A stretch of 64,000 nucleotides of DNA. Origin: Eledone cirrhosa. Taxonomy: Eukaryota. Below the pieces are notes generated by a model, which saw only the letters and a list, made by a program, of their open reading frames with translations, was not told where the DNA came from and did no database searches. Below, in pieces: positions 4,270 through 57,890 of this stretch; within the stretch, counting starts at the first letter, position 1, and each line of letters opens with the position of its first letter. A program made the position numbers and the translations under genes. Location: contig OZ024764.1 in NCBI GenBank assembly GCA_964016885.1, forward strand, positions 22,940,001 through 23,004,000, read 5' to 3'.

Positions 4270-5035
4270 TCTAATGTCACTAATAACTACTTTTATCAGT
4301 CAGTATAATCTAATGTCACTAATAACTACTTTTATCAGTCAGTATAATATAATGTCACTAATAACTACTTTTATCAGTCTGTTTAATCTAATTTCACTAA
4401 TAACTACTTTTATCAGTCAGTTTAATCTAAAGTCACTAATAACTACTTTTATCAGTCAGTATAATCTAATGTCACTAATAACTACTTTTATCTGTCAGTA
4501 TAATCTAAAGTCACTAATATCTACTTTTATCTGTCAGTATAATCTAAAGTCACTAATAACTACTTTTATCTGTCAGTATAATCTAAAGTCACTAATAACT
4601 ACTTTTATCAGTCAGTATAATCTAATGTCACTAATAACTATTTTTATCTGTCAGTTTAATCTAAAGTCACTAATAACTACTTTTATCAGTCAGTATAATC
4701 TAATGTCACTAATAACTACTTTTATCTGTCAGTATAATCTAATGTCACTAATAACTACTTTTATCAGTCAGTATAATCTAATGTCACTAATAACTACTTT
4801 TATCTGTCAGTATAATTTAATGTCACTAATAACTACTTTTATCAGTCTGTTTAATCTAATTTCACTAATAACTACTTATATCTGTCAGTATAATCTAATG
4901 TCACTAATAACTACTTTTATCAGTCAGTTTAATCTAATGTCACTAATAACTACTTTTATCAGTCAGTTTAATCTAATGTCACTAATAACTACTTTTATCA
5001 GTCAGTTTAATCTAATGTCACTAACAACTAACCTA
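4270..5035. repeat. 39-bp intronic minisatellite (unit 1, right part, ~20 copies)
   Basis: Same unit resumes at TCTAATGTCAC directly after the LINE 5' end. Confidence 0.97.
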
Positions 5036-5149
5036 TGTTAGTCAGCACATTCTTCACCAAGGAAGGCCTTAGTATTTATTACAGTCCATTTATCAATATA
5101 GAAATATTATATGAATTTTGTACTGATGTATTATAAGTTTCTGAGTATC

Positions 5150-16899: not shown

Positions 16900-17033
16900 T
16901 TTACGTCACGAAAAAACATTGAAGCATGCGCAGTGGTGCAGTTGTCGACTTCCTGTCCACGTGTTAGTCTTCCTACAACAACATTTAGACAACATTTCTG
17001 TAAATACTAAACACCTGAGAGTATAATGTAAGT
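16900..17033 (+). promoter_or_regulatory. Putative promoter and non-coding exon 1 of ZNF2
   Basis: TTACGTCA (CRE-like), GCATGCGCA (NRF1-like, 16924), ACTTCCTG (ETS, 16948), CACGTG (E-box, 16958), donor GTAAGT at 17028; conserved in three copies. Confidence 0.65.
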
Positions 17034-18224
17034 ATTATGTCTATTAATATTGTAGATTTAAGCTCACTTTTCACATTACAAATATATATTTTCTTGTTTG
17101 TTTCATTACTGGAAATATAAAATGTTATCGTAATTATCTATATTTTACCTACCTCTAATTAATTAAAGTGAAAACTTTTGTTGTTGCTGAAAAATAATTT
17201 AACAAAACTAAATATTTAAATATTCTAAAGGTCGTTTTTATATTATGTGATGATATAATTAATATATTTTATTACAATTGTATAAATTTACAGTAGAATA
17301 ACATTGTAAATATGTTTTAAATATATACATAAATAACATAAGTGTGTAAATAACATTATAACTTGCTGGCAATTCCTTGAGAAAGACATTACAAATATAT
17401 TGTCTAAACTGTGTATAATAATATAATTTACTGAACAATAATGATAAAGGAAAGAAAAACACAGTGGGAGATGGCAATTGACCACCAAACGAGGTAAACA
17501 TTTTCAACTTTCCCCTTTTTTTGCTTTGTCCGAGACAACTCAAAATATTCTTCAAGGAACTGGATTTTCCATTCGGTTGGATCGAACGGATTTTACCATT
17601 TATAATCTACGGAGAGGAATAACAGATGTTCGGAGGAAAAAAGAATTGTTTGTGGCAACAACGTAGGGAACCAACCTGGAGCAATTGTATCACACAATTA
17701 TACTTTCCTCCTTAACATACACTTACAATTTTTCAAAATCAAACCCCCCAAATATAAAATATAAATAATTATAAATGGCGAGGATCCATCCCATCTCCCT
17801 CTTGAAATAACCTGAATCTATTTATAGTCAGGTGTGACTGAAAGGTCAATCCATACTTTCATTCTATTTCACAGAATTAGAAGCTTTGACCACTTGATAG
17901 AATTCAGGTCCAGTAATGTAATCACTCCGTAATTGTAAACATCTTGTATCACTATCATTCAGGTTTTGATTTTACTTAAGTCTTGCCCATGTTTTTTTTT
18001 TTTTTCTTTTTTACACAAACTCACAATTTCGGTTTTTACTGCGGATTTACCCATGCGAACTATTACACAAACTCACAGCCTTAGATTTTGTATTTCTAGC
18101 GTTTTTATTTTCCTTCTCTTTGCATGTTCAGTGCTCTTTCTCTCCCACTGTATTTATCTCCCTCTCACATGACCACACTCCTCTCCACGCACTCATCATC
18201 TTCTCACTCCTTCTACACCTTCCA

Positions 18225-21110
18225 ACGCTGGCCCTCTACTGCCGGCTGTTGCCAGCCCGCCACCTGATTGCGCCCTCTGTGCCCGCACTAACCAGTACTT
18301 AAAGACAATTAAGTCACCTATGCCACGCAAGCTACCACAGAAGCTGTGTCGGCATCACCAAAGCTCAAGCTAAAAGGCTTCAACACTGGACCTGTCATCG
18401 GTGCCACTTCAGCTCCGACTATTCCGTGGGGATGACCAACACTCTTCCGACGACTTTCCACAGCCCCCCAGGGCTTCTCCAAATCAAAGCTCGTTAACCG
18501 GACCCTTAAGGGAGCTCGGAACAGCTTTGCAGGTGCCCTCTCTAATTTACTGAAAAACGTTTGCTCATCCAACAATAGACTGGCAGAAATTGTTTTTGTT
18601 TCCCCTCATCTCTCTTCACGTGCACAATGCGAACTCGGGTTCCCTCAAGTCCTCTCTCAAGCGGCAGTTCCAGCTGTTTGAGTCCACCCCAACCACGTCT
18701 CATCTCAGGTCGTCTCCGAGCTCGGTGTCCACCAACAGACAACCGGTAGGCCTCAAGCGAGCCGTCAATGCCAATTCAGCGAATTTGACATTAAAGGGGC
18801 TGTCCTCCCTTGCTCCATGCAACTCTGACTCTCGTGAGCGTCTGAAGGAGAAGCACCCCCAGATGATCAGCAACACTGGCCCGAACCACCAGAATACTTG
18901 AGACCGGTTTACACCACCAATTTCATCAGAAAGGCAATTTCATCCTTCCCCGCTGGGTCAGGCGCGGGAATTGACGTCCTTCGTCCTCAACACCTCAAGG
19001 ATGGTATCTCCTTATCGGCCGGTGATGCCGGACTCGAGCTCTTGGAGAGTCTGACTCAGTTTGTGAATCAGTGAACGTTCTCCCGTTCATCCGCCCACTG
19101 TTCTTCGGTGCGAAGCTATTTGGTCTCACCAAGCCCAACAGGGACCTGCGCCGCATTGCGGTTGGCTGCACACCTCACTGCAAAGGCGTGATTGCTGTTG
19201 GTCTCCAACCCACTGGCGGAGGAATTTTCCCCCATCCAGCTGTGGGTGGGTACCAGGTTGGGATGTGTGACTGCTGTCCACGCTGCCAGAGCATTTGCCA
19301 ACTTGCCCTCCTCATCCCCCAAGGTCATCCTCAAACTTGACCTCAGGAATGCCTTCAACTCCGTCAGCCGTAACATCGTCCTCGGCTCAGCAAGAGAGAG
19401 GGTCCCACAACTCTACCACTTTGCTTGGCAGGCTTATCGGGAGCCCTCCTACCTCTCTTTCAGTGACCAGATCATCACCTCTGCCTCAGGAGTCCAACAG
19501 GGTGACCCAGTCGGGACCCCCCCCCCCTCACTGGACATTGATGACGTCACCAAGATGAGGGCTGAGTTGGACCTCAATGTCTGGTAGCTCGACGACGCCT
19601 GTTTGGGGGGAACTCCGGATATGGTTCTCGCCACTGCCAACAGGATGGTGGAGGAGCTTGGCGCCGGGGTCTCCAGATCAATAGCTCCAAATGTGAGCTC
19701 TGGATCCTCAACCACCCGGCTTCTTAACACCAACAGCTGATCGACCTGTTCGCAGAGTCCTTCCCTTCCATCACGGTCCCTCCCCCGTCGGCTTGGTGCT
19801 CCTTGGGAGCCCCGATCACAGACCTGGCCTTCGAGTCAACCATCCAATCGAAGATGGTTGGCCTTGAGCAGCTGCTGAGGAATATTGAAGATATCGAACG
19901 CCATCAAGGTTTCTTCTTACTCAGGAACTACCTGTCTATTCCTAAGCTTCTGTATCTGCTCAGGGTCAGCCCCTCTCACAGATTTCCATCCTGCCTCCAA
20001 CGCTTCGACGACCTAATCTTCGAGAGACTCGAGTGTCTGGTCAATGTTAGTAAGTGTTCGTCCCTCTCTCCGCCCTGCTTCCTTTCCTCCACCCAAGCTT
20101 GCAGCATCCTCTCCTCTCCAACATGGACTAGTTCAAACAGGGAGTTGTGTGAAGCTCTCCAGCAATGGAGTGAGTTGGGCTTGTCTCTTCCTGAGAAGGT
20201 GGAGGACAGTCGAAGTCAGAGAACTTGGGACAGGATACGTTGGAATGCCACCTTCGACTCCCTCTTCGTCCTCTCAGATCAGTTTACAAGGTGCCGCTTA
20301 CCATCTGCCAGCGCCAAATACTCCGGTGACTGGGTCGATGCCTTACCCGTGGCCAACGTTGGAGGCCTACTCAGCCTGGATGAACTTCGTGTCTCCATCA
20401 CCCTCAGAGTGGGAGCTGACGTCTGCATGGGTTTGAGATGTGGCTAACTCCTCGACTCCACAGGCCCCCACGGTCTTTCTTGCCGCCTGAATGCCGGCCA
20501 CTTCGCCCGTCACACGGAGCTAAACTTTATTCTGAAGAGAGCTTTGGCCCGGGCAAACATCCCCTCAGTCTTGGAACCATCTGGGTTGTCCAGAAGTGAC
20601 GCAAAAGACCTGACGGCCTTACCCTGTGCCCCTGGTCGAGAGGCAGGTGCTTAATCTGGGACGTCACTGTTAGTGACTCCTTTGCTCTTTCCCACATCCT
20701 TGATGCTGCGGTAAGGACGAGAGCCACAGCTTCGGCAGCCGAGCGGAGTAAGACCCTCAAATACTCTGATCTGTCGGCCAGCTACATTTTTCAGCCTGTG
20801 GCTTTCGAGACGTTTGGGGGAGTCGGGCCGCTGACTGCGAGGTTCCTTTCCTCACTGACGGCTCGCCTTATAGAGGTAACTGGCGAAATCGCGAGGGCGC
20901 TTGGCTGTTCCAGCACCTCAGCCTCGCCATCACCCGATGTAACACTGCCAGTGTGCTGGCTTGCCTCAAAACTCATTAGAGAGGTTTCCCAGTACCCCTC
21001 GTTGCTGTCTTTAGCTCTGGTGTTGGCTCCGTTGTCCACCCCTTCCTTTACATTTTCTTTAATATTGCAACATTGAAGGAATTTATCTTTCATTGTATCA
21101 TCCTTTATAG
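18225..21110 (+). mobile_element. RLE-type non-LTR retrotransposon (CRE-like), degenerate
   Basis: FFGAKL..LRRIAVG, KLDLRNAFNSV, GVQQGDP, W*LDD; C-terminal Cys/His motif, RH, and RPDG..PW..WDVTV restriction-like endonuclease motif. Confidence 0.8.
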
Positions 21111-21401
21111 TGTTACCGAGGCATTTGTAATGTTATTTATATATTTAAAACATATTTGTTAGGTTATTCTACTGTAAATTTATTTATATGCTCTGTTTAT
21201 GTTTTCATTCTGAAGGAACATATCCACTTGTGTTGATATAAGTGATGCTATGACTTTCCTCTAAGCATTGTGTCATTATATATGTTATTATAAACGTGAA
21301 TAAATTGAATTTATAGTGTGATAATAGGCCACACCTCACACCCTAGGGGTTAACTACACACTTTGAGGCAAGCCAACACACTGGCAGCATTACAACGTGT
21401 G

Positions 21402-21565
21402 ATGGTGAGGCTAAGGTGCTGAAATAACCAGGTACCCTCACGGGTATCACCTTACGCCTCTGTAAGGTGAGGCTAAGGTGCTGAGATAACCAGGTACTCT
21501 TACGGATATCACCTGACACCTCAGTATGGTGAGGCTACGGTGCTGAAATAACCAGGTACCCTCAC
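21402..21565. repeat. 60-bp tandem repeat (~3 copies; paralogs ~46190-46291, ~58424-58514)
   Basis: GGTGAGGCTAAGGTGCTGAAATAACCAGGTACCCTCACG recurs at 60-bp spacing. Confidence 0.85.
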
Positions 21566-21925
21566 GGAAACGACTAGATTTGTAGAAAAAGTAGGGTGAA
21601 AGTATACAAAGAGATGTAGTTTCACAGATCTACTCACACCTCACGTTGGGTGGGAATAATTATTTTTCTTAGAATTCTTGCTATACCCCTTTTCCAGTAT
21701 TTTTTCTCTGGACCCCTTAGATACTTGCGATAGACGTTTTATTTCCCAGTATTAGGGTTAGGGTTTCCGTTTTCAGGAAGAAAAGTCGATTGCAAACATC
21801 TAAGAGGTCGAGCAATGAAATTAAGGAAAGATAATTATTTCCCAGCCAACTGGAGAAGTGTGTAGCTCTTCTTAACTCTGATAATCCTGTCTCCCACTTC
21901 TTTATCTACAAATCTAGTCGTTTCC
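21566..21925. mobile_element. Foldback/MITE-like 360-bp imperfect palindrome (paralog 46293-46650; partial ~58517-58743)
   Basis: GGAAACGACTAGATTTGTAGA...TCTACAAATCTAGTCGTTTCC termini, nested inverted arms, TTAGGGTTAGGG at the centre. Confidence 0.8.
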
Positions 21926-22084
21926 TGCTACTTTGTTCCCTGGGGTATGCCTTAGTATTTGACACCATCTATCTGTCTTACTCCCTAACTAGCAAGAAGT
22001 CAATCTGTCTAATGTGTTCACCTGATTGGTAGGTTATTAGGTGGTTGGTAGGTTTCTTGAAGTGTTGCAAATGGTTAGTTCACT

Positions 22085-22570
22085 TGCATCACAAAATACA
22101 AGAAGCCTCACTCCTTCATCGTTTCTTGAGCCATAACCATGACCACCATGTACCCCAGTATATCCATCCTGGAACTGTCCAACATGACCATTGAAGTCCC
22201 CTGCTATTATAACTAGGTCTCTGTCATTGTGGTTATCTCTACTTATTCCTTTTCTACATATGGAGCAGGGCCACTTTCCTGAAGGTGTCAGGGTCTTCTC
22301 TCCTATCCATTACCACTTTAGTTTTGGCTAAGTATATTCTCAGAACCTACCATTTCAAATTCTATATCTATAGTTGGTCATCTACATAGAGAAGTTTCCA
22401 TAGACAGCCAGTCTTAAACCTCTCTGTTATGGTTTGGAGAACTATGATGAACAACAGTGGGCTAAGAACTAAACCATGATGAACTCCTACCTGTACCTTC
22501 AATTCTTCACTAGACACACTTTACTGACAGCTTCTCACAAGCCATTCTTCTACACCTAATTTCCTTAACC
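22085..22570 (-). mobile_element. Old RTE LINE fragments
   Basis: 22090-22205 is a diverged reverse complement of ~61395-61510; 22440-22565 matches the RT region. Confidence 0.7.
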
Positions 22571-22640
22571 CTTTAGTATATAAACTGGCCATATCTGGCC
22601 AGAATTCTCCCACATCTTTCTGTTCAAACTGGCCGTAATT

Positions 22641-24743
22641 AAATAATAATAATAATAATGAAATTATTGTGTACAGTGCTCAGGTGCACTACAACTCATC
22701 AAAGGTGCATGTATAGTACATAGAATAATGTACAAATGTCAGGAAAATGAACAGTGCATGAGTCATGATATAATAACAATAATTGTTTCTACTTTAGGCA
22801 CAAGGCCAGCAATTACCCAGTGCATTACTGGTACTTTATTTTATCGACCCCGTAAGGATGAAAGGCAAAGTCAACCTTGGCGGGATTTGAACTCAGATCG
22901 TAAAGGGACGTAACTATGCTGGAAAGCATGGCGTCCAACCCTCTACCAATACTGCCAATCCACCACCAATAATGAAATTTTGTGTATAGTGCCCAGGTGC
23001 ACCACAACTCATCAAAAAAGTGCATGTACAGTATATAGGGCAATGCACAAACATCAGTAAAATGAACAGTGCACGAGTCATGATACACACGTGTGCATGT
23101 GTATGGAAGGGGTACATCAGGTGTAGTTTTGGCGTATTTCGGGAAGCTTGAGTGTCTTAAAGGATGCAGTGTCTCGGCAGCTAACAACTGACGCAGGCAG
23201 TTTGTTCCCTACTTCAGCAACTCTGAGCGTGAAAAAATGTCTACGAAAGTCATGGGAGCTGTGCTGTTTTCTGATCTTGTAGGCATGTCCACGTGTGTTA
23301 GACACATGGAGATCAAAGAGGCGCTCAGGGTTGCAATTGGCGAGATGGTTAAAAACTTTGTGGGTATTCACCAAGTCCATTGCCAGACGTCGGAGCTTCA
23401 ATGAATTCATGCCCAGGGAAGCAAGGCGTTCATAGTATGGTAGGTGTCTGATGGAGGGTATGTGCTTGGTTGCACGTCTCTGAACAATTTCCAGGAGGTC
23501 AATGTTCTGAGCAAGATGGGGGTTACAGACTGATGATGCGAATTCCAAGTGTGGTCGTACCATAGCTGTATACAGTTTTAAATAGATGGCTGGAGAGCGG
23601 CTAACAAAGGTCTTGCTGAGTGATGCCAAGACACCCTCGGCCTTCTTGACAATCTTAGAGACATGCTTTGTCCAACGCAAATCGTTGCTGACAGTAATGC
23701 CCAGGTCACGTTCACAAGAGGACTTTTTGATATCAGTGTTGTGGAGGGAGTATGTGGACGCTGGATTTTTCCTTCCAAAATGTATGGTGGTACACTTGTC
23801 CACAGCCAGCTTCAGTTGCCAGTCTGTGATCCATTGCTGCATTGTGTCCAGGTCTGATTGTAGGAAAGAGTTGTAAATTTCAGGATCAGTCCTTTTGATT
23901 TCAAGGTACAGCTTGATGTCATCTGCATATTTCAGTACCGTGGCATTCTGTAAGTTGGCATCTATGTCATTAATATATACCACAAACAAAAGAGGACCAA
24001 GAACAGATCCCTGTGGTAGACCAGATGACATCTCATATGGTGAAGAATGCTGACCTAGAACCGTGACTACTTCTTTTCGGCTGAGAATGAAGGATTTCAA
24101 CCAGTCGAAAAGATCATCCCTCACACCCATTGCAGAGAGTTTTGCCATAAGTCTTTTGTGTGGCACAGAATTAAAAGCCTTAGCAAAGTCAAGGTAAACA
24201 AGATCCACCCATGAGCCGCTGTCAGTGATCCGGGTGATGTCCTCAAGGAACTCGATAAGCTGATCACAGCAGCTGGAGTTAGGGATAAATCCAAACTGTG
24301 AGGGCCGGATGAGGCTGTGAGAGCTCCAGAAGTTCCAAAGTGTTTCTCTGACACAGGATTCCATCAGTTTGGCCATACAGCTAGTAAGACTGACTGGACG
24401 ATAGTTGACAGGTGACATTCCGTTGCCCTTTTTGAACAGGGGAATGACACTGGCAGTTTTCCACTGCTCCGGAGTAGCACCATTGTTGAGACAGTATTGA
24501 AAGAAGAAAGAAAGCTGGCGCAAAAGGAAATACCCGCCACATTTGAGAAGCAGGTATGTCACACCATCAAGACCAGGGGAGGCATAGTTGCGCTTATTCT
24601 TAAGGTGACGTCGCAACATTGCAGGTGTAAATTCCATAGTTGTTATGGAATTTGATGTTAGAGATGGTGGAGATGGTACATTCTGGTTTTCAACAGTAAA
24701 AATACTTGCATAGCACTCAGCAACGAGTTCTGCGCATTACTTG
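22641..24743 (-). mobile_element. CR1-clade LINE, 5'-truncated, uninterrupted RT domain (506-aa ORF 23117-24637)
   Basis: Same family as 888-4269; (ATT)n tail; empty site present at ~47212. Confidence 0.94.
22784..22967 (-). mobile_element. tRNA-derived SINE nested in the CR1 3' UTR
   Basis: A-box-like TGGCAGTATTGG, B-box GAGTTCAAATCC, central GCCTTTCATCCTTACGGGGTCGATAAAAT; flanked by AATAAT duplication; absent from the other CR1 copy. Confidence 0.85.
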
Positions 24744-24884
24744 ATTGGTCACTTGTACTTATGTTAAGGTATTGTTCTCAAAATAAATAACATGAAAATC
24801 TCATAGATTTGATATTATGTGAGATAAAGCATTTACTGTGAAAATATAATAGTAAATATAGAGTAATGTGAATACTAAAGGGTT

Positions 24885-25922
24885 AATCTAATGTCACTAA
24901 TAACTACTTTTATCAGTCAGTATAATCTAATGCCACTAATAACTACTTTTATCAGTCAGTATAATCTACTACCACTAATAACTACTTTTATCAGTCAGTA
25001 TAATCTAATGTCACTAATAACTACTTTTATCAGTCAGTATAATCTAATGTCACTAATAACTACTTTTATCAGTCAGTATAATCTAATGTCACTAATAACT
25101 ACTTTTATCAGTCAGTATAATCTAATGTCACTAATAACTACTTTTATCAGTCAGTATAATCTAATGTCACTAATAACTACTTTTATCAGTCAGTTTAATC
25201 TAATGTCACTATTAACTACTTTTATCAGTCAGTTTAATCTAATGTCACTAATAACTACTTTTATCAGTCAGTTTAATCTAATGTCACTAATAACTACTTT
25301 TATCAGTCAGTTTAATCTAATGTCACTAATAACTACTTTTATCAGTCAGTTTAATCTAATGTCACTATTAACTACTTTTATCAGTCAGTTTAATCTAATG
25401 TCACTAATAACTACTTTTATCAGTCAGTTTAATCTAATGTCACTAATAACTACTTTTATCAGTCAGTATAATCTAATGTCACTAATAACTACTTTTATCA
25501 GTCAGTTTAATCTAATGTCACTAATAACTACTTTTATCAGTCAGTTTAATCTAATGTCACTATTAACTACTTTTATCAGTCAGTTTAATCTAATGTCACT
25601 AATAACTACTTTTATCAGTCAGTTTAATCTAATGTCACTAATAACTACTTTTATCAGTCAGTTTAATCTAATGTCACTAATAACTACTTTTATCAGTCAG
25701 TTTAATCTAATGTCACTATTAACTACTTTTATCAGTCAGTTTAATCTAATGTCACTAATAACTACTTTTATCAGTCAGTTTAATCTAATGTCACTACTAA
25801 CTACTTTTATCAGTCAGTTTAATCTAATGTCACTAATAACTACTTTTATCAGTCAGTTTAATCTAATGTCACTAATAACTACTTTTATCAGTCAGTATAA
25901 TCTACTACCACTAATAACTAAC
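24885..25922. repeat. 39-bp intronic minisatellite (unit 2, ~26 copies)
   Basis: Same unit as 22-887. Confidence 0.97.
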
Positions 25923-25994
25923 CTATGTTAGTCAGCACATTCTTCACCAAGGAAGGCCTTAGTATTTATTGCAGTCCATTTATCAATATAGAAA

Positions 25995-26365
25995 CAGACA
26001 CCCGGATGTGGCGCATGCGCAAACTGAGCACACAACACACACACAGAAACAAAATGGCGTAGGACAGAAGAAAGGAAAGGCACAGAAACAAAGAAGGAAT
26101 CCCCAGTCACTGAAGAGGTCACAGAGTGTGTGACGAAAGGACTATGACTATATATAAACAACTATCTGGTTGTGGAACCAACCAACCAGAATTTATAAGT
26201 TTGTAGATTTGTAAATTTATAAATTTATAAATATATAATAAATTGAAGTGAAAGCAACTGGTGCGTGTGTTTCTTATTGGCAACATGACCCTCCCAAAGT
26301 ATAACAATATCGGTTTCAACACACGATTTCAGATAAAGAAACTTGCTAAACAAATTCAGAAACGA
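25995..26365 (+). mobile_element. 371-bp insertion with 10-bp TSD; Penelope pseudo-LTR/retrozyme-like
   Basis: AATATAGAAA duplicated at 25985-25994 and 26366-26375; empty sites at ~5095 and ~47870; carries promoter motifs and a hammerhead core. Confidence 0.75.
26105..26149 (+). ncRNA. Minimal type I hammerhead ribozyme motif
   Basis: Stem I AGTCA/TGACT, core CTGAAGA, extra G, stem II GTCACA/TGTGAC, GAAA, minimal stem III GGAC, cleavage site TA. Confidence 0.65.
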
Positions 26366-27262
26366 AATATAGAAATATTATATGAAATTTGTACTGATGT
26401 ATTACAAGTTTCTGAGTATCTTATAATGTTCTTTTATTATTTCAGAATACCAGAGGACATTGGCATTAAAGAGCACGTTACATCAGACATATCCTCAATA
26501 TTAACCATTTCTAATGAAAGACACTACCCATCAATTTCAAATAATTTTGAAAACACTCAACACTTTGAAGGGATTTAGTAATATAACTAAATTTCTCAGT
26601 ATTAAGCTACTCTTTGGAACATAACTTTGCACAATTTCATGAATTTATGATGGAAAGTTTTTAGATACATATAAAGACTGGTATGAAAAAGATAAAACAC
26701 TTTTATATCAGGTGTTTCATCAACACCATTATTTAAAGACTAAAGGAAGCTGTTATACAGAACAGATTCAACCTTGTTTATATAAATCTATGGGAGAAAT
26801 ACTGGGAAATATTTCTTCTAAACTCAATAACACTTCTATTCTTTGCTGTCTGGAATATGTAGAAGATACAAAATAAAGCTGAAGAAATTTACACATGATT
26901 TTGTAAGATCTTCATATATTGACAAAGATGATAGTTGATGGAACTACAGGAGTAGAAATATTTCCATTATTACAAGAATAACTAATCAAATAAAAACCAG
27001 AAAAATTAGATTCTTCACTGTCTGGAATATGTACAAGATGATTTTATATGTATATTAAACTTGAAGACATCTACAAAACAGTTTGTATCATCTTTAATTA
27101 AAAAGAAAGACCAAGTTGATAGAAATATATCTGGAGGAATATGTTTCAGGAATAATATTATAAACATAAAGAAGAAAAATATCCATATATTGACAGAAGA
27201 AAAATATTAAAACTGTGAATTATGTGAGAAACTGAGGTCATTGATATCTTTTAGTAGGAGTT

Positions 27263-28630
27263 ATGTCGAAAAATATAGTAAAATCACCATTCCACTGTGA
27301 TATCTGTGGTAAATCATTCTCTCGTAGTAATCAGCTAACTACTCCCAAACGTATTCATACAGGAGAGAAGCCTTATCACTGTGAAATCTGTGGTAAATCA
27401 TTCAGTTACGGTAGTAGCATCAGAGTTCACAAGCAAATTCATACAGGAGAGAAGCCACATCACTGTAACATCTGTAGTAAATCATTCTCTTGCAGAGATA
27501 GCTTAACTAATCACAAACGTATTCATACAGGAGAGATGCCACATCACTGTGACATCTGTGGTAAATCATTCTCTTGCAGAGATAGCTTAACTAATCACAA
27601 ACGTATTCATACAGGAGAGAAGCCACATCACTGTGAGATCTGTAGTAAATCATTCTCTTGCAGAGATAGCTTAACTAATCACAAACGTATTCATACAGGA
27701 GAGAAGCCATATCACTGTGATATCTGTGGTAAATCATTCGCTGACAGAAGTTGCTTAGCTACCCACAGACGTACTCATACAGGAGAGAAGCCATATCACT
27801 GTGACATCTGTGGTAAATCATTCTCTCGTAGTAATCACCTAACTATCCACAAACGTACTCATACAGGAGAGAAGCCATATCACTGTGACATCTGTGGTAA
27901 ATCATTCTCTCGTAGTAATCACCTAACTATCCACAAACGTACTCATACAGGAGAGAAGCCTTATCACTGTGACATCTGCGGTAATTCATTCTCTCAGAGT
28001 AATCACCTAACTACTCACAAACGTATTCATACAGGAGAGAAGACATATCAGTGTGACATCTGTGGTAATTCATTCTCTCATAGTAATAACCTAACTACTC
28101 ACAAACGTACTCATACGGGAGACAAACCATATCACTGTGACATCTGTGGTAAATCATTCGCTGACAGAAGTTGCTTAGCTACCCACAGACGTACTCATAC
28201 AGGAGAGAAGCCATATCACTGTGACATCTGTGGTAAATCATTCTCTCGTAGTAATCACCTAACTATCCACAAACGTACTCATACAGGAGAGAAGCCATAT
28301 CACTGTGACATCTGTGGTAAATCATTCTCTCATAGTAATCTCCTAACTATCCACAAACGTACTCATACAGGAGAGAAGCCATATCACTGTGACATCTGTG
28401 GTAAATCATTCTCTCAAAGTAATCACCTAACTCTCCACAAACGTACTCATACAGGAGAGAAGCCATATCACTGTGACATCTGTGGTAAATCATTCTCTCA
28501 TAGTAATCACCTAACTCTCCACAAACGTACTCATACAGGAGAGAAGCCATATCACTGTGACATCTGTGGTAAATCATTCTCTGAAAGCGGTAACTTAACC
28601 AAGCATGTGCGTATTCATACAGAAGTTTAG
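27263..28630 (+). CDS. Tandem C2H2 zinc-finger protein, 16 fingers (first has His>Pro)
   Basis: 455-aa ORF, same MSKNIVKS leader and TEV end as ZNF1. Confidence 0.92.
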
Positions 28631-39109: not shown

Positions 39110-39257
39110 ATTTTACGTCACAAAAAAACTTGACCTTTGACATTGAAGCATGCGCAGTGGTGCAGTTGTCGACTTCCTGTCCACGTGTCAGTCTTCCTAC
39201 AACATCATTTAGAAAACATTTCTGTAAATACTAAACACCTGAGACTATAATGTAAGT
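39110..39257 (+). promoter_or_regulatory. Putative promoter and non-coding exon 1 of ZNF3
   Basis: Paralog of 16900-17033 plus DR1-like TGACCTTTGACAT; donor GTAAGT at 39252. Confidence 0.65.
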
Positions 39258-39432: not shown

Positions 39433-41533
39433 TATAGCGAGATTACTGGTTGTATGAATGTAACAAAACGAGACAATGTTTGTGTATATAATATTTAATT
39501 AACGGTAGATAGAATACTTGACATGTCAAAAATAGATGTTAGAATGAAACAAAGTTAGTAGTTACCGTTTTGATTGCCAGGCAAACGCGGCTGGCAGAGG
39601 GCGCCTGGCTAAGGCCAGGCGCCTGTTGGCCAAATTAATGGCAGAGCCAAATGAGAAGACTCTTGACCTGGTGCCGAAAAGGCAAAGAGAGAGAGGAAGC
39701 TTAAAGTTGTTAGTTTTATAGGGCTCTGACCGGAAGTCGCAGAAAGGGTTCCACCTCCCGTCTAGATCCCAATCAAAACAAGGGAGACAACCGCTACATA
39801 ACCTCCCGCCAGAATTTTAGTGTATAAAAATCGAAATGAAAATATGTAGCAAGTTGGCGAGAATGTTGTAACAGGCATGAAAATTACGACAAAAGAATGT
39901 TTGGAAAAATCAATGATAGATATCAAGGTAGCCAACCGCTCTTGGCCAGAGAACGACTGGACATCCATCTATCCATCACCCAAAGATACAATGTAATAAA
40001 GTAAAAGTAATAGAAGAGCTCAAAGTTCAAAATATAGTTCACAGGTGTGCAATCACATGACAGCAGGAAAGAAAGTGTGTTCCAGAGAATGAATGCAGGT
40101 GGTTTCTGTTCTGTGGTATATCGTGAAATTTCCAACCTCCGAATGGATTTTCTCACAGGAAGAGTGCTGCAAAAATGAATTCTCTGGCTTTGGTGAAGCT
40201 GTATTGATGTATTGCTGTTGCTGCTGCTGTTGTCTCGCTGAGTGAGCGTATTCGGTGTTTAAATTCACAGTAAAAAAATTTTTTTTTAGAAAAAAATAAG
40301 TTGCGCAAAGTGCTAGAAATAGCAGCCGAAGTTGATGGTCGATGTTGAGAATGCGTTGACCTGGAAGGGTCAAGAGGCCAGCGACCAGAGAAATAAGCAT
40401 TCCCAATAAATGCGCGGTTATCAACGGTAAATTTACATTGTAAATTTATAAACCGGCAAATAGAAGAATATAGCTTAAGGCTGAAGAATCCTTGGGGGAG
40501 AAATGCTATCTCTGGCGTGCGGCTGTCTGTGAGTAGAGACATCTCAGTGAATCGAGAATTTATGCTGCCTACACGTGCCAATACAAGGTTGAAAAAAAAT
40601 ATTTCTAACACGCGAGAAAATGATAGTGCAATTTTGAAAGTGACAATGATGAAAAAGAAAGGCTTCAATCAGCATAATTATAGGTGTGAACTTTGGAAAA
40701 AAACAAAAAACTTGAACGATGAAGAAAACGATGAACAAAAGGCAATGGTTCATCGAAAATAAATGTTCCTGTTGAAATGTTTTTTAAAGAATATCAAATT
40801 TCTTTTTTTTTTTTTTTTTTGTGTGTTTTGAAAGAGTTCGTTGTAAGAAACGAGAAACATATATATATATCGTGAAATGTTTTTTTTTGTTTTGAAAGTG
40901 TTCGTTGTAGGAAACGAGAAACATATATATATATATTGGTGAAATGCGACAGTTAATTGATGCGTGAGAGAAAAAGTATGTCTGTGCGAATTCCACATGT
41001 GCGTGTGTGCGTGTCCTTGAGTATTTTCATAGTTTGTCGCTAAATTTGCTGTGTATTCGTAATGTTACTCACAAAACCAGATGTGCTATTTTTTTCTTTT
41101 TTTTGGGGGGGGGGTGACCCTTATAGCGATGAACGGCTGCGTGTTCGTATCACGTCAGGGTTACCAATATAGCGAGATTACTGGTTGTATGAATGTAACA
41201 AAACGAGACAATGTTTGTGTATATAATATTTAATTAACGGTAGATAGAATACTTGACATGTCAAAAATAGATGTTAGAATGAAACAAAGTTAGTAGTTAC
41301 CGTTTTGATTGCCAGGCAAACGCGGCTGGCAGAGGGCGCCTGGCTAAGGCCAGGCGCCTGTTGGCCAAATTAATGGCAGAGCCAAATGAGAAGACTCTTG
41401 ACCTGGTGCCGAAAAGGCAAAGAGAGAGAGGAAGCTTAAAGTTGTTAGTTTTATAGGGCTCTGACCGGAAGTCACAGAAAGGGTTCCACCTCCCGTCTAG
41501 ATCCCAATCAAAACAAGGGAGACAACCGCTACA
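39433..41533 (-). mobile_element. Young non-autonomous LTR retrotransposon (Gypsy-like, tRNA-Trp PBS)
   Basis: 366-bp LTRs at 39433-39798 and 41168-41533, almost identical; 4-bp TSD AAAC; PBS TGGTAACCCTGACGTGAT; purine-rich GGCGGGAGG before the 3' LTR; no pol. Confidence 0.92.
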
Positions 41534-42539
41534 AAACTAAATATTTAAATATTCTAAAGGTCGTTTTTATATTATGTGATGATATAATTAATATATTTTA
41601 TTACAATTGTATAAATTTACAGTAGAATAACGTTGTAAATATGTTTTAAATATATACATAAATAACATAAGTGTGTAAATAACATTATAAATTGCTGGCA
41701 ATTCCTTGAGAAAGACATTACAAATATATTGTCTAAACTGTGTATAATAATATAATTTATTGAACAATAATGATAAAGGAAAGAAAAACACAGTGGGAGA
41801 TGGCAATTGACCACCAAACGAGGTAAACATTTTCAACTTTCCCCTTTTTTTGCTTTGTCCGAGACAACTCAAAATATTCTTCAAGGAACTGGATTTTCCA
41901 TTCGGTTGGATCGAACGGATTTTACCATTTATAATCTACGGAGAGGAATAACAGATGTTCGGAGGAAAAAAGAATTGTTTGTGGCAACAACGTAGGGAAC
42001 CAACCTGGAGCAATTGTATCACACAATTATACTTTCCTCCTTAACATACACTTACAATTTTTCAAAATCAAACCCCCCAAATATAAAATATAAATAATTA
42101 TAAATGGCGAGGAACCATCCCACATCCCTCTTGAAATAACCTGAATCTATTTATAGTCAGGTGTAACTGAAAGGTCAATCCATACTTCCATTCTATTTCA
42201 CAGAATTAGAAGCTTTGACCACTTGATAGAATTCAGGTCCAGTAATGTAATCACTCCGTAATTGTAAACATCTTGTATCACTATCATTCAGGTTTTGATT
42301 TTACTTAAGTCTTGCCCATGTTTTTTTTTTTTTTTCTTTTTTACACAAACTCACAATTTCGGTTTTTACTGCGGATTTACCCATGCGAACTATTACACAA
42401 ACTCACAGCCTTAGATTTTGTATTTCTAGCGTTTTTATTTTCCTTCTCTTTCCATGTTCAGTGCTCTTTCTCTCCCACTGTATTTACCTGCCTCTCACAT
42501 GACCACACTCCTCTCCACGCACTCACCATCTTCTCACTC

Positions 42540-45900: not shown

Positions 45901-47354
45901 TGTTACCGAGGCATTTGTAATGTTATTTATATATTTAAAACATATTTCTTATGTTATTCTACTGTAAATTTATTTATATGCTCTGTTTATATTTTCATTC
46001 TGAAGGAACTTATCCACTTGTGTTGATATAAGTGATGCTATGACATTCCTCTAAGCATTGTCATTATATATGTTATTATAAACGTGAATAAATTGAATTT
46101 ATAGTGTGATAATAGGCCACACCTCACACCCTAGGGGTTAACTACACACTTTGAGGCAAGCCAACACACTGGCAGCATTACAACGGGTGATGGTGAGGCT
46201 AAGGTGCTGAAATAACCAGGTACCCTCACGGATATCACCTGACACCTCAGTAAGGTGAGGCTACGGTGCTGAAATAACCAGGTACCCTCACTGAAATGAC
46301 TAGATTTGTAGAAAAAGTAGGGTGAAAGTATACAAAGAGATGTAGTTTCACAGATCTACTCACACCTCACGTTGGGTGAGAATAATTATTTTTCTTAGAA
46401 TTCTTGCTATACCCCTTTTCCAGTATTTTTTCTCTGGACCCCTTAGATACTTGCGATAGACGTTTTATTCCCCAGTATTAATGTTAGGGTTTCCGTTTTC
46501 AGGAAGAAAAGTCGATTGCAAACATCTAAGAGGTCGAGAAATAAAATTAAGGAAAGATAATTATTTCCCAGCCAACTGGAGAAGTGTGTAGCTCTTCTTA
46601 ACTCTGATAATCCTGTCTCCCACTTCTTTATCTACAAATCTAGTCATTTCCTGCTACTTTGTTCCCTGGGGTATGCCTTAGTATTTGACACCATCTATCT
46701 GTCTTACTCCCTAACTAGCAAGAAGTCAATCTGTCTCATGTGCTCACCTGGTTGGTAGGTTATTAGGTGGTTGGTAGGTTTATTATAACTAGGTCTCTGT
46801 CATTGTGGTTATCTCTACTTATTCCTTTTCTACATATGGAGCAGAGCCACTTTCCTGAAGGGGTCAGGGTCTTCTCTCCTATCCATTACCACTTTAGTTT
46901 TGGCTAAGTATATTCTCAGAACTTACCATTTCAAATTCTATATCTATAGCTGGTCATCTACATAGAGAAGTTTCCATAGACAGCCAGTCTTAAACCTCTC
47001 TGTTATGGCTTGGAGAACTATGATGAACAACAGTGGGCTAAGAACTAAACCATGATGAACTCATACCTGTACCTTCAGTTCCTCACTAATCACACTTTAC
47101 TGACAGCTTCTCAAAAGCCATTCTTCTACACCTAATTTCTTTAACCCTTTAGTATATAAAATGGCCATATCTGGCCAGATTTCTCCCACATCTTTCTGTT
47201 CAAACTGGCAGTAACTGGTCACTTATACTTATGTTAAGGTATTGTTCTCAAAATAAATAACATGAACATCTCATAGATTTGATATTATGTGAGATAAAGC
47301 ATTTACTGTGAAAATATAATAGTAAATATAGAGTAATGTGAATACTAAAGGGTT

Positions 47355-47807
47355 AATCTAATGTCACTAATAACTACTTTTATCAGTCAGTTTAATCTAA
47401 TGTCACTAATAACTACTTTTATCAGTCAGTATAATCTAATGTCACTAATAACTACTTTTATCAGTCAGTTTAATCTAATGTCACTAATAACTACTTTTAT
47501 CAGTCAGTTTAATCTAATGTCACTAATAACTACTTTTATCAGTCAGTTTAATCTAATGTCACTAATAACTACTTTTATCAGTCAGTTTAATCTAATGTCA
47601 CTAATAACTACTTTTATCAGTCAGTATAATCTAATGTCACTAATAACTACTTTTATCAGTCACTTTAATCTAATGTCACTAATAACTACTTTTATCAGTC
47701 AGTATAATCTGATGTCACTAGTTACTACTTTTATCAGTCAGTTTAATCTAATCTCACTAATAACTACTTTTATCAGTCAGTATAATCTACTGCCACTAAT
47801 AACTAAC
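47355..47807. repeat. 39-bp intronic minisatellite (unit 3, ~11-12 copies)
   Basis: Same unit as 22-887. Confidence 0.97.
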
Positions 47808-57744: not shown

Positions 57745-57890
57745 TTTACGTCACAAAAAAACTTGACCTTTGACATTGAAGCATGCGCAGTGGTGCAGTT
57801 GTCGACTTCCTGTCCACGTGTTAGTCTTCCTACAACATCATTTAGACAACATTTCTGTAAATACTAAATACCTGAGACTATAATGTAAGT
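57745..57890 (+). promoter_or_regulatory. Fourth putative promoter/exon 1 with no ZNF exon inside the window
   Basis: Paralog of 39110-39257; donor GTAAGT at 57885; homology to the other units stops at ~58752. Confidence 0.6.

Follow-up and report, generated by a model that had tools for sequence, protein, structure and literature searches.

A clipped Penelope-like retrotransposon end with a minimal hammerhead motif in a likely zinc-finger gene intron of Eledone cirrhosa

The zinc-finger unit and its insertion

The window analysed here, a stretch of 64,000 nucleotides from the octopod Eledone cirrhosa (contig OZ024764.1; positions are given in window coordinates), carries units of a C2H2 zinc-finger (ZNF) gene cluster, one of which holds an insert of 371 bp. 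The ZNF open reading frame (ORF) of this host unit is intact at 27263..28630 on the plus strand (Pfam zf-H2C2_2, E=8.5e-129) and is preceded by a putative splice acceptor AG at 26444..26445 (+), whose context, TATTTCAG followed across the junction by AAT, is retained in older units of 74% identity (8546, 29820 and 50561). Some 9 kb upstream of the insert lie a putative native promoter, with CRE-, NRF1-, ETS- and E-box-like motifs, and a putative first exon (16900..17033, +) with the donor GTAAGT at 17028; the window has three such promoter-like stretches with a terminal GTAAGT (17028, near 39250 and near 57880), and the four other ZNF units that carry the insertion have it as well. Because this donor stretch is repeated and the acceptor context kept, an intron running from 17028 to 26445 is likely, judging from these motifs. 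The insert (25995-26365) lies within it in sense orientation and, as the earlier note had placed it, ends about 80 nt before the acceptor-like AG at 26444-26445, leaving the acceptor region undisturbed.

Between the acceptor and the first zinc finger, positions 26446-27262 resemble decayed coding sequence, and the frame that opens at the acceptor runs for 43 codons before a stop in each of the 33 matched units (35 examined), so that the cluster would use a downstream ATG or another intron, or be partly pseudogenic. A 39-bp minisatellite (24883..25920, TRF, no strand assigned) sits just upstream of the insertion site and is common to units with an empty site; such a minisatellite precedes each ZNF last exon (21-887, 4270-5030, 24883-25920 and 47353-47805) and in some frames reads on without a stop for up to 350 codons, probably as a side effect of its repeat unit.

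The insert is bounded by two copies of AATATAGAAA, at 25985-25994 and 26366-26375 (+), while the paralogous ZNF units at 5095 and 47870 have a single copy of this 10-mer and lack the insert. The flanking 10-mers had been taken as a 10-bp target site duplication, a reading that survives in part. The retroelement from which the insert derives, described below, has a 3' end of its own reading ...CAGAAACGAAATAT, so that element sequence extends to 26370; five of the ten bases therefore come from the element, leaving about 5 bp of unambiguous duplication. The five element bases, AATAT, belong to element end and target alike, a junction microhomology, and the element elsewhere has the same AATAT before its ORF continues.

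The insertion had also been described as absent from both paralogs, which holds within the window and fails beyond it, since four more ZNF units of this contig have it, giving five filled units against at least 40 with empty sites. In a tree built from 900 downstream bases at 32 of 35 loci, three loci without the anchor motif being left out, the five filled units form one clade apart from 27 empty units, with support of 100/99, and 0-5 substitutions separate their inserts from the window copy. A single clade with near-identical inserts marks one recent insertion that was duplicated afterwards, and the suggestion that the insert might give one ZNF gene a private promoter falls with it, the insertion being common to five units.

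The parent Penelope-like element

Searched against its own genome (3.0 Gb), the insert returned 306 candidates, of which 40 were scored, at 95-100% identity and with matches spanning nearly the whole insert. At each of the 25 loci fetched from beyond the ZNF cluster the sequence continues upstream into the 3' UTR of a longer element, the start of the insert corresponding to a point 94 nt past the ORF stop of an intact copy. In the fetched regions the full element measures 4 kb and is arranged in partial tandems, next to truncated copies in inverted orientation; tandem pseudo-LTRs (pLTRs) with an inverted 5'-truncated copy are seen at L031, L033, L161 and L162, and in the last two the ORF that lies between the tandem pLTRs is uninterrupted (1,227 aa in L161). 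This single ORF joins a reverse transcriptase (RT) domain (RVT_1, E=2.4e-4, with 21.3 bits below the Pfam cut-off of 29.6) to a GIY-YIG endonuclease at its C terminus (E=1.2e-4, at the Pfam cut-off), the architecture of endonuclease-positive (EN+) Penelope-like elements (PLEs). Between the two domains CIDKKCITC forms a CX4CxxC linker finger, and a CCHH motif whose pair of cysteines lies within the core of GIY-YIG (VVYSIRCTEGQCRNKNIVYIG, then two histidines) was read by eye. A PDB search with the element gave one weak RT match and one chance match, nothing more, and among the 71 homologues returned there was no named reference set; the best named one, a single match of the 71, was an Octopus vulgaris protein at 72%, which along with the C2H2 cluster points to an octopod host. 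A further O. vulgaris protein, annotated as 'dynein regulatory complex subunit 6-like isoform X6', matches 27% of the searched RT region at 78% identity and is either an exonised element or an annotation error.

The feature at 25995..26370 (+) is accordingly read as the 5'-truncated 3' end of an EN+ PLE, made up of the pLTR, the first 86 nt of the ORF and a tail; the first 28 ORF codons (MTLPKYNNIGFNTRFQIKKLAKQIQKRN) occupy 26285..26370 (+), the optional 60-nt tail being 26311-26370. By the criteria of Craig et al. (10.1101/2021.04.23.441226), rather than by RT phylogeny, the sequence features place the element in the Neptune or Nematis type, with which it shares the single ORF of RT and C-terminal GIY-YIG, a CX2-5CxxC linker finger, a Cys pair in the EN core, partial tandems, an inverted truncated copy, an optional tail and (TA)n targets. 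It departs from the elements described there in the length of its tail, 60 nt against the 30-40 nt given for EN+ PLEs, and in a long ORF (1,227 aa) with an Asn/Thr/His-rich insert. PLEs, partly recently active, are known from octopus (PMC13282606, PMC8967140), while literature searches on hammerhead ribozymes in octopus and on hammerheads with Penelope in cephalopods brought up no description of this family; a paper on the giant squid goes no further than a count of 235 Rfam hammerheads (PMC6962438).

How the window copy came to end where it does is suggested by the ends of its relatives. Among 96 copies of the window family and its nearest sister family, 86 could be scored, of which 32 end at ORF +26 and 43 at ORF +86, with three within one base of +86, six elsewhere and two running on; TA runs follow 74 of 84 scored ends. 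The window copy ends at +86 (26370). The two end classes fit what was shown for PAc, the Poseidon element of Anolis carolinensis (Frangieh et al. 2024, PMC11167929), which likewise has two fixed RT starts inside the 5' end of its ORF, tailed and tail-less copies, AT-rich targets and a hammerhead in its pLTR. PAc differs in belonging to the Penelope/Poseidon clade, described without a linker Zn finger, and in an ORF that starts inside the hammerhead (PMC11167929), whereas the ATG of the window family lies about 135 nt downstream. On this model, the element protein would nick an AT-rich site, reverse transcription would begin at ORF +86, the second of the two set start sites, aided by the 5-nt AATAT match, and would halt after about 376 nt, leaving a 5'-truncated insert whose motifs would serve the life cycle of the retroelement (promoter of the next tandem unit, RNA processing) and not the host gene. 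At L031-L034 and L151 copies lie amid other RT-coding elements, several with Penelope-like ORFs, and one 1,407-aa open frame in these regions is an in-frame chimera of two different elements.

The hammerhead motif and its loop

The insert contains a minimal type I hammerhead at 26105..26149 (+), with predicted cleavage after 26144. Stem I (26105-26109 with 26145-26149) has 5 bp, CTGAAGA at 26110-26116 is followed by one extra G, and the 6-bp stem II (26118-26123 with 26129-26134) leads into GAAA, GGAC and TA, the full core and stems being as the earlier note wrote them. A relaxed descriptor found nothing comparable in 5,000 dinucleotide-shuffled inserts and 0.01 matches per shuffled 64-kb window (100 shuffles), so that the motif is no product of chance, and this is the only hammerhead in the window. 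The Rfam search proposed at the outset drew a blank, with no hammerhead family at E<=10 within 24000-28500; we considered and rejected this miss as an argument against the motif, as the 2014 study that described minimal hammerheads (min-HHRs) in the pLTRs of metazoan PLEs needed a relaxed descriptor of its own (Cervera and De la Pena, PMC4209133). The motif has the features given there, namely a type I CUGANGA/GAAA/UH core, a helix I of 4-5 bp, a long helix II, an extra base between 9 and 10.1, a G10.1-C11.1 pair, a vestigial helix III and thousands of mostly solitary copies from truncated elements. Its exact 45-nt sequence has 3,156 copies in the genome (control 0). Core geometry and the identity of the insert to the ends of intact elements bear out the original proposal of a min-HHR of a Penelope-like pLTR.

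In one respect the motif differs from those described: the loop across positions 15.2-16.2 is palindromic in the published min-HHRs (PMC4209133), while here, family-wide, G15.2-C16.2 can pair and the inner GA is non-palindromic. Similar non-palindromic loops may be present in the supplementary alignments of that paper. The loop AGGACT, one change from a palindrome, had been offered as a sign that the window copy might be inactive, and we considered in the same vein that it might be a dead copy of a palindromic ancestor. Neither idea survives the family-wide comparison, as a pattern that permits palindromes gave 3,853 matches, in which 99 of the first 100 listed loops were GGAC and one GTAC, and AGGACT is also found in copies with intact ORFs. 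It is the normal loop of the family, and therefore no sign that this copy is dead; since assignment to family A drew partly on loop sequence, the statement rests on the 45-mer count and the listed loops.

The sister families retain the hammerhead core, with AA or AG in the loop, or AT with a G-U wobble in part of family D, whose protein is 46-67% identical to the intact ORF. Family D has 10,269 genome matches to its own hammerhead pattern, in which stem I is weak and mismatched and loop III is GAAC or GATT. The check on stem covariation found compensatory change between families. In an alignment of 30 distinct rows, from which matches selected for non-T at stem II position 2 were excluded, 92.8% of cells pair, the core columns being invariant partly because the search required them, and in six of the 30 rows both partners differ at two helix II pairs (U-A for C-G, G-C for A-U). 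All six rows belong to family D, so that each double change counts as one event and the covariation as one family split; moreover, 173 of 500 shuffles reached the same number of pairs changed on both sides, and helix I is mismatched in family D. A further motif resembling a hammerhead, unrelated to this one, has an 8-bp stem II and the loop TATG, is present at L086:908-958 and L124:159-195, and likely belongs to another Penelope-like family.

Folding predictions give little reason to expect cleavage by the lone motif. Closure of helix III in the monomer is predicted to cost 5.5 kcal/mol and the minimum free energy (MFE) structure of the monomer is a misfold in which stem I mispairs with loop III; the fold of the whole insert (z = -0.41) is uninformative. 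As a homoduplex, the helix III strand AGGACU is predicted at -1.7 kcal/mol, weaker than palindromes (-4.8 to -9.1) and stronger than the sister loop AGAACU (+2.4). For the published motifs, a single min-HHR showed no cleavage and dimers showed low cleavage (PMC4209133), and the hammerhead of the Anolis PLE needed the element's protein and left no RNA-seq read ends (PMC11167929). The hammerhead is identical in all five filled units, which with so few substitutions is uninformative, and no partner hammerhead lies near any of them (one per 20-kb stretch).

Promoter-like motifs and the host gene

All the further motifs reported for the insert are present, namely promoter-like motifs at 26002..26059 (+; ETS-like 26002-26009, NRF1-like 26011-26020, YY1-like 26051-26059), the TATA-like run TATATAAA at 26151..26158 (+), which is part of the pLTR directly after the hammerhead, and AATAAA. 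Within the window the ETS-, NRF1- and YY1-like motifs are unique, whereas there are 8 occurrences of TATATAAA and 44 of AATAAA. Family A retains the YY1-like motif in 55/59 copies, family B in 30/37 and family D in 16/25, and the motif stands 46-60 nt ahead of the core in the window family and family D; family D copies have no ETS-like motif, and a TATATA run follows the hammerhead in the sister families also. Further downstream, a conserved, donor-like GTG(C/A)GTG block at 26261..26267 (+) is found in 53/59 A, 29/37 B and 17/25 D copies. For Penelope itself, a conserved donor and an internal promoter are known from the pLTR (PMC2377424), and a promoter within this pLTR is plausible from its motifs; the insert likely carries the element's promoter, as the label 'promoter-bearing' had implied.

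The donor-like block has a second possible role, as it also starts one strand of a helix predicted around the element ATG (MFE; z-score +1.0), which is not significant, 171 of 200 shuffles being as good. Here GUGUGUU before the ATG can pair with AACACAC at about ORF +35 (26264-26326 in the window; also L164, L165 and L115), and in family D a one-sided change preserves the pairing; the modelled helix may be a structure around the first RT start site. A 73-nt Penelope-like 5' UTR intron, with its donor at 26261 and acceptor near 26333, was rejected, since it would excise an ATG that is conserved in family D, whereas the acceptor and next ATG are not.

Taken together, the insert is real, was correctly spotted, and is ordinary in kind. 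Our preferred reading, to which we give a probability of about 0.8, is that it is the clipped 3' end of a young Penelope-like element, inserted once and copied into five ZNF units, in which its hammerhead, having no partner, is probably inactive and probably removed with the intron by splicing. What was observed in support is the match between the insert and the termini of intact RT-GIY-YIG elements, the place where it ends, its origin in one event and a hammerhead sequence shared across the family. That the insert is inert toward the host gene is likely, given the missing cis partner, the costly helix III closure, the predicted misfold, the weak cleavage published for such motifs (PMC4209133) and the promoter motifs mutated in two of the five units. 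Against inertness count the sense orientation, the full set of promoter motifs in three of the five units, the AATAAA and the donor-like block 185 nt before the acceptor. An effect on the host is possible from the sequence, while cutting of ZNF pre-mRNA, its termination or a new promoter through the insert are each unsupported.

The best surviving alternative, itself unlikely, is that the five filled ZNF units draw on the pLTR as an alternative promoter, with starts near the NRF1/YY1 motifs and transcripts that either read through or are spliced from the donor-like 26261 to the acceptor at 26445. The precedent of the Penelope pLTR (PMC2377424), the YY1-like motif and GTG(A/C)GT block retained across families, and the sense position 80 nt before the acceptor speak for it, but the unit still has its native promoter-like region and donor, the donor-like block may instead be one strand of a helix, and family D conserves no acceptor to go with it. 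Furthermore, thousands of identical pLTRs are likely to be silenced. Three of the five filled units retain every promoter motif, while in the other two (L005 and L006) the NRF1-like and YY1-like sites are both mutated, which weighs against the promoter; for reading selection on the insert these counts are too small and the copies too young.

More doubtful still is the proposal that the hammerhead cuts ZNF pre-mRNA 301 nt before the acceptor, or that AATAAA ends transcription early, lowering ZNF output. Cutting would proceed through a trans dimer with other copies or with aid from the element's protein, and it can draw on the complete core, the covarying stem II, the favourable AGGACU homoduplex in comparison with the sister loop, and the protein-assisted cleavage known for a PLE hammerhead (PMC11167929). 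It is opposed by the missing cis partner, in the 64-kb window and in 20 kb around each filled copy, by the predicted misfold of the monomer, by the low activity of even engineered dimers (PMC4209133), and by an ORF portion of 86 nt where the Anolis element needed a template of 172 nt (PMC11167929); early termination has to contend with the abundance of AATAAA in this AT-rich window. The CPEB3 ribozyme is conserved and single-copy. It resembles the present motif as a self-cleaving motif in an intron upstream of an exon and, since it modulates Cpeb3 mRNA, offers the proposal a precedent, but is HDV-like, with measured self-scission and a shown host effect (PMC10919898), whereas the insert is a young transposon copy that is likely inactive.

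A variant of both ideas, which we hold to be marginally more far-fetched again, is a protein-gated ribozyme that would couple ZNF output to transposon activity, silent until the family is expressed and then, triggered by the element's protein or by abundant hammerhead RNAs in trans, cleaving the pre-mRNA of the five paralogs or switching the pLTR on as their alternative promoter. Least credible is an independently mobile, non-autonomous element of about 371 bp, retrozyme or SINE-like, an identity largely ruled out, since for all that the insert is short, flanked by a target duplication and hammerhead-bearing, and animal retrozymes have been proposed as derivatives of PLE pLTRs (10.64898/2026.07.22.740005), its 5' boundary is common only to the five duplicated units, the 25 other loci running on into the 4-kb coding element, and no head-to-tail 371-bp arrays occur among the fetched loci. 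Non-LTR retrozymes share with the insert a type I hammerhead, a weak helix III and a unit of a few hundred bases, but form non-coding tandem arrays, whereas the insert is a fragment of an autonomous coding element (PMC7229834); head-to-tail non-coding repeats of 150-450 bp are not what was found here, the copies ending a 4-kb coding element.

Read as a clipped PLE end, the insert matters little beyond extending to an octopod family the class of retroelements with ribozymes that was described in 2014. Of specialist interest are the non-palindromic purine-purine loop III kept across thousands of copies and the intact ORFs, which make the family a candidate for in vitro work on Neptune-type elements. 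It would gain in importance if the insertion changed the output of the five ZNF paralogs, as an active retroelement would then be connected with zinc-finger clusters believed to keep transposons in check, and the link between C2H2 genes and transposons in cephalopods has been called an open question (PMC12513265). The ZNF first intron holds a further insertion-like feature in the window, where 370-bp direct repeats at 39433-39802 and 41168-41537, 99.5% identical and enclosing 1.4 kb, resemble a young non-autonomous LTR-type insertion that the third unit has and the second lacks.
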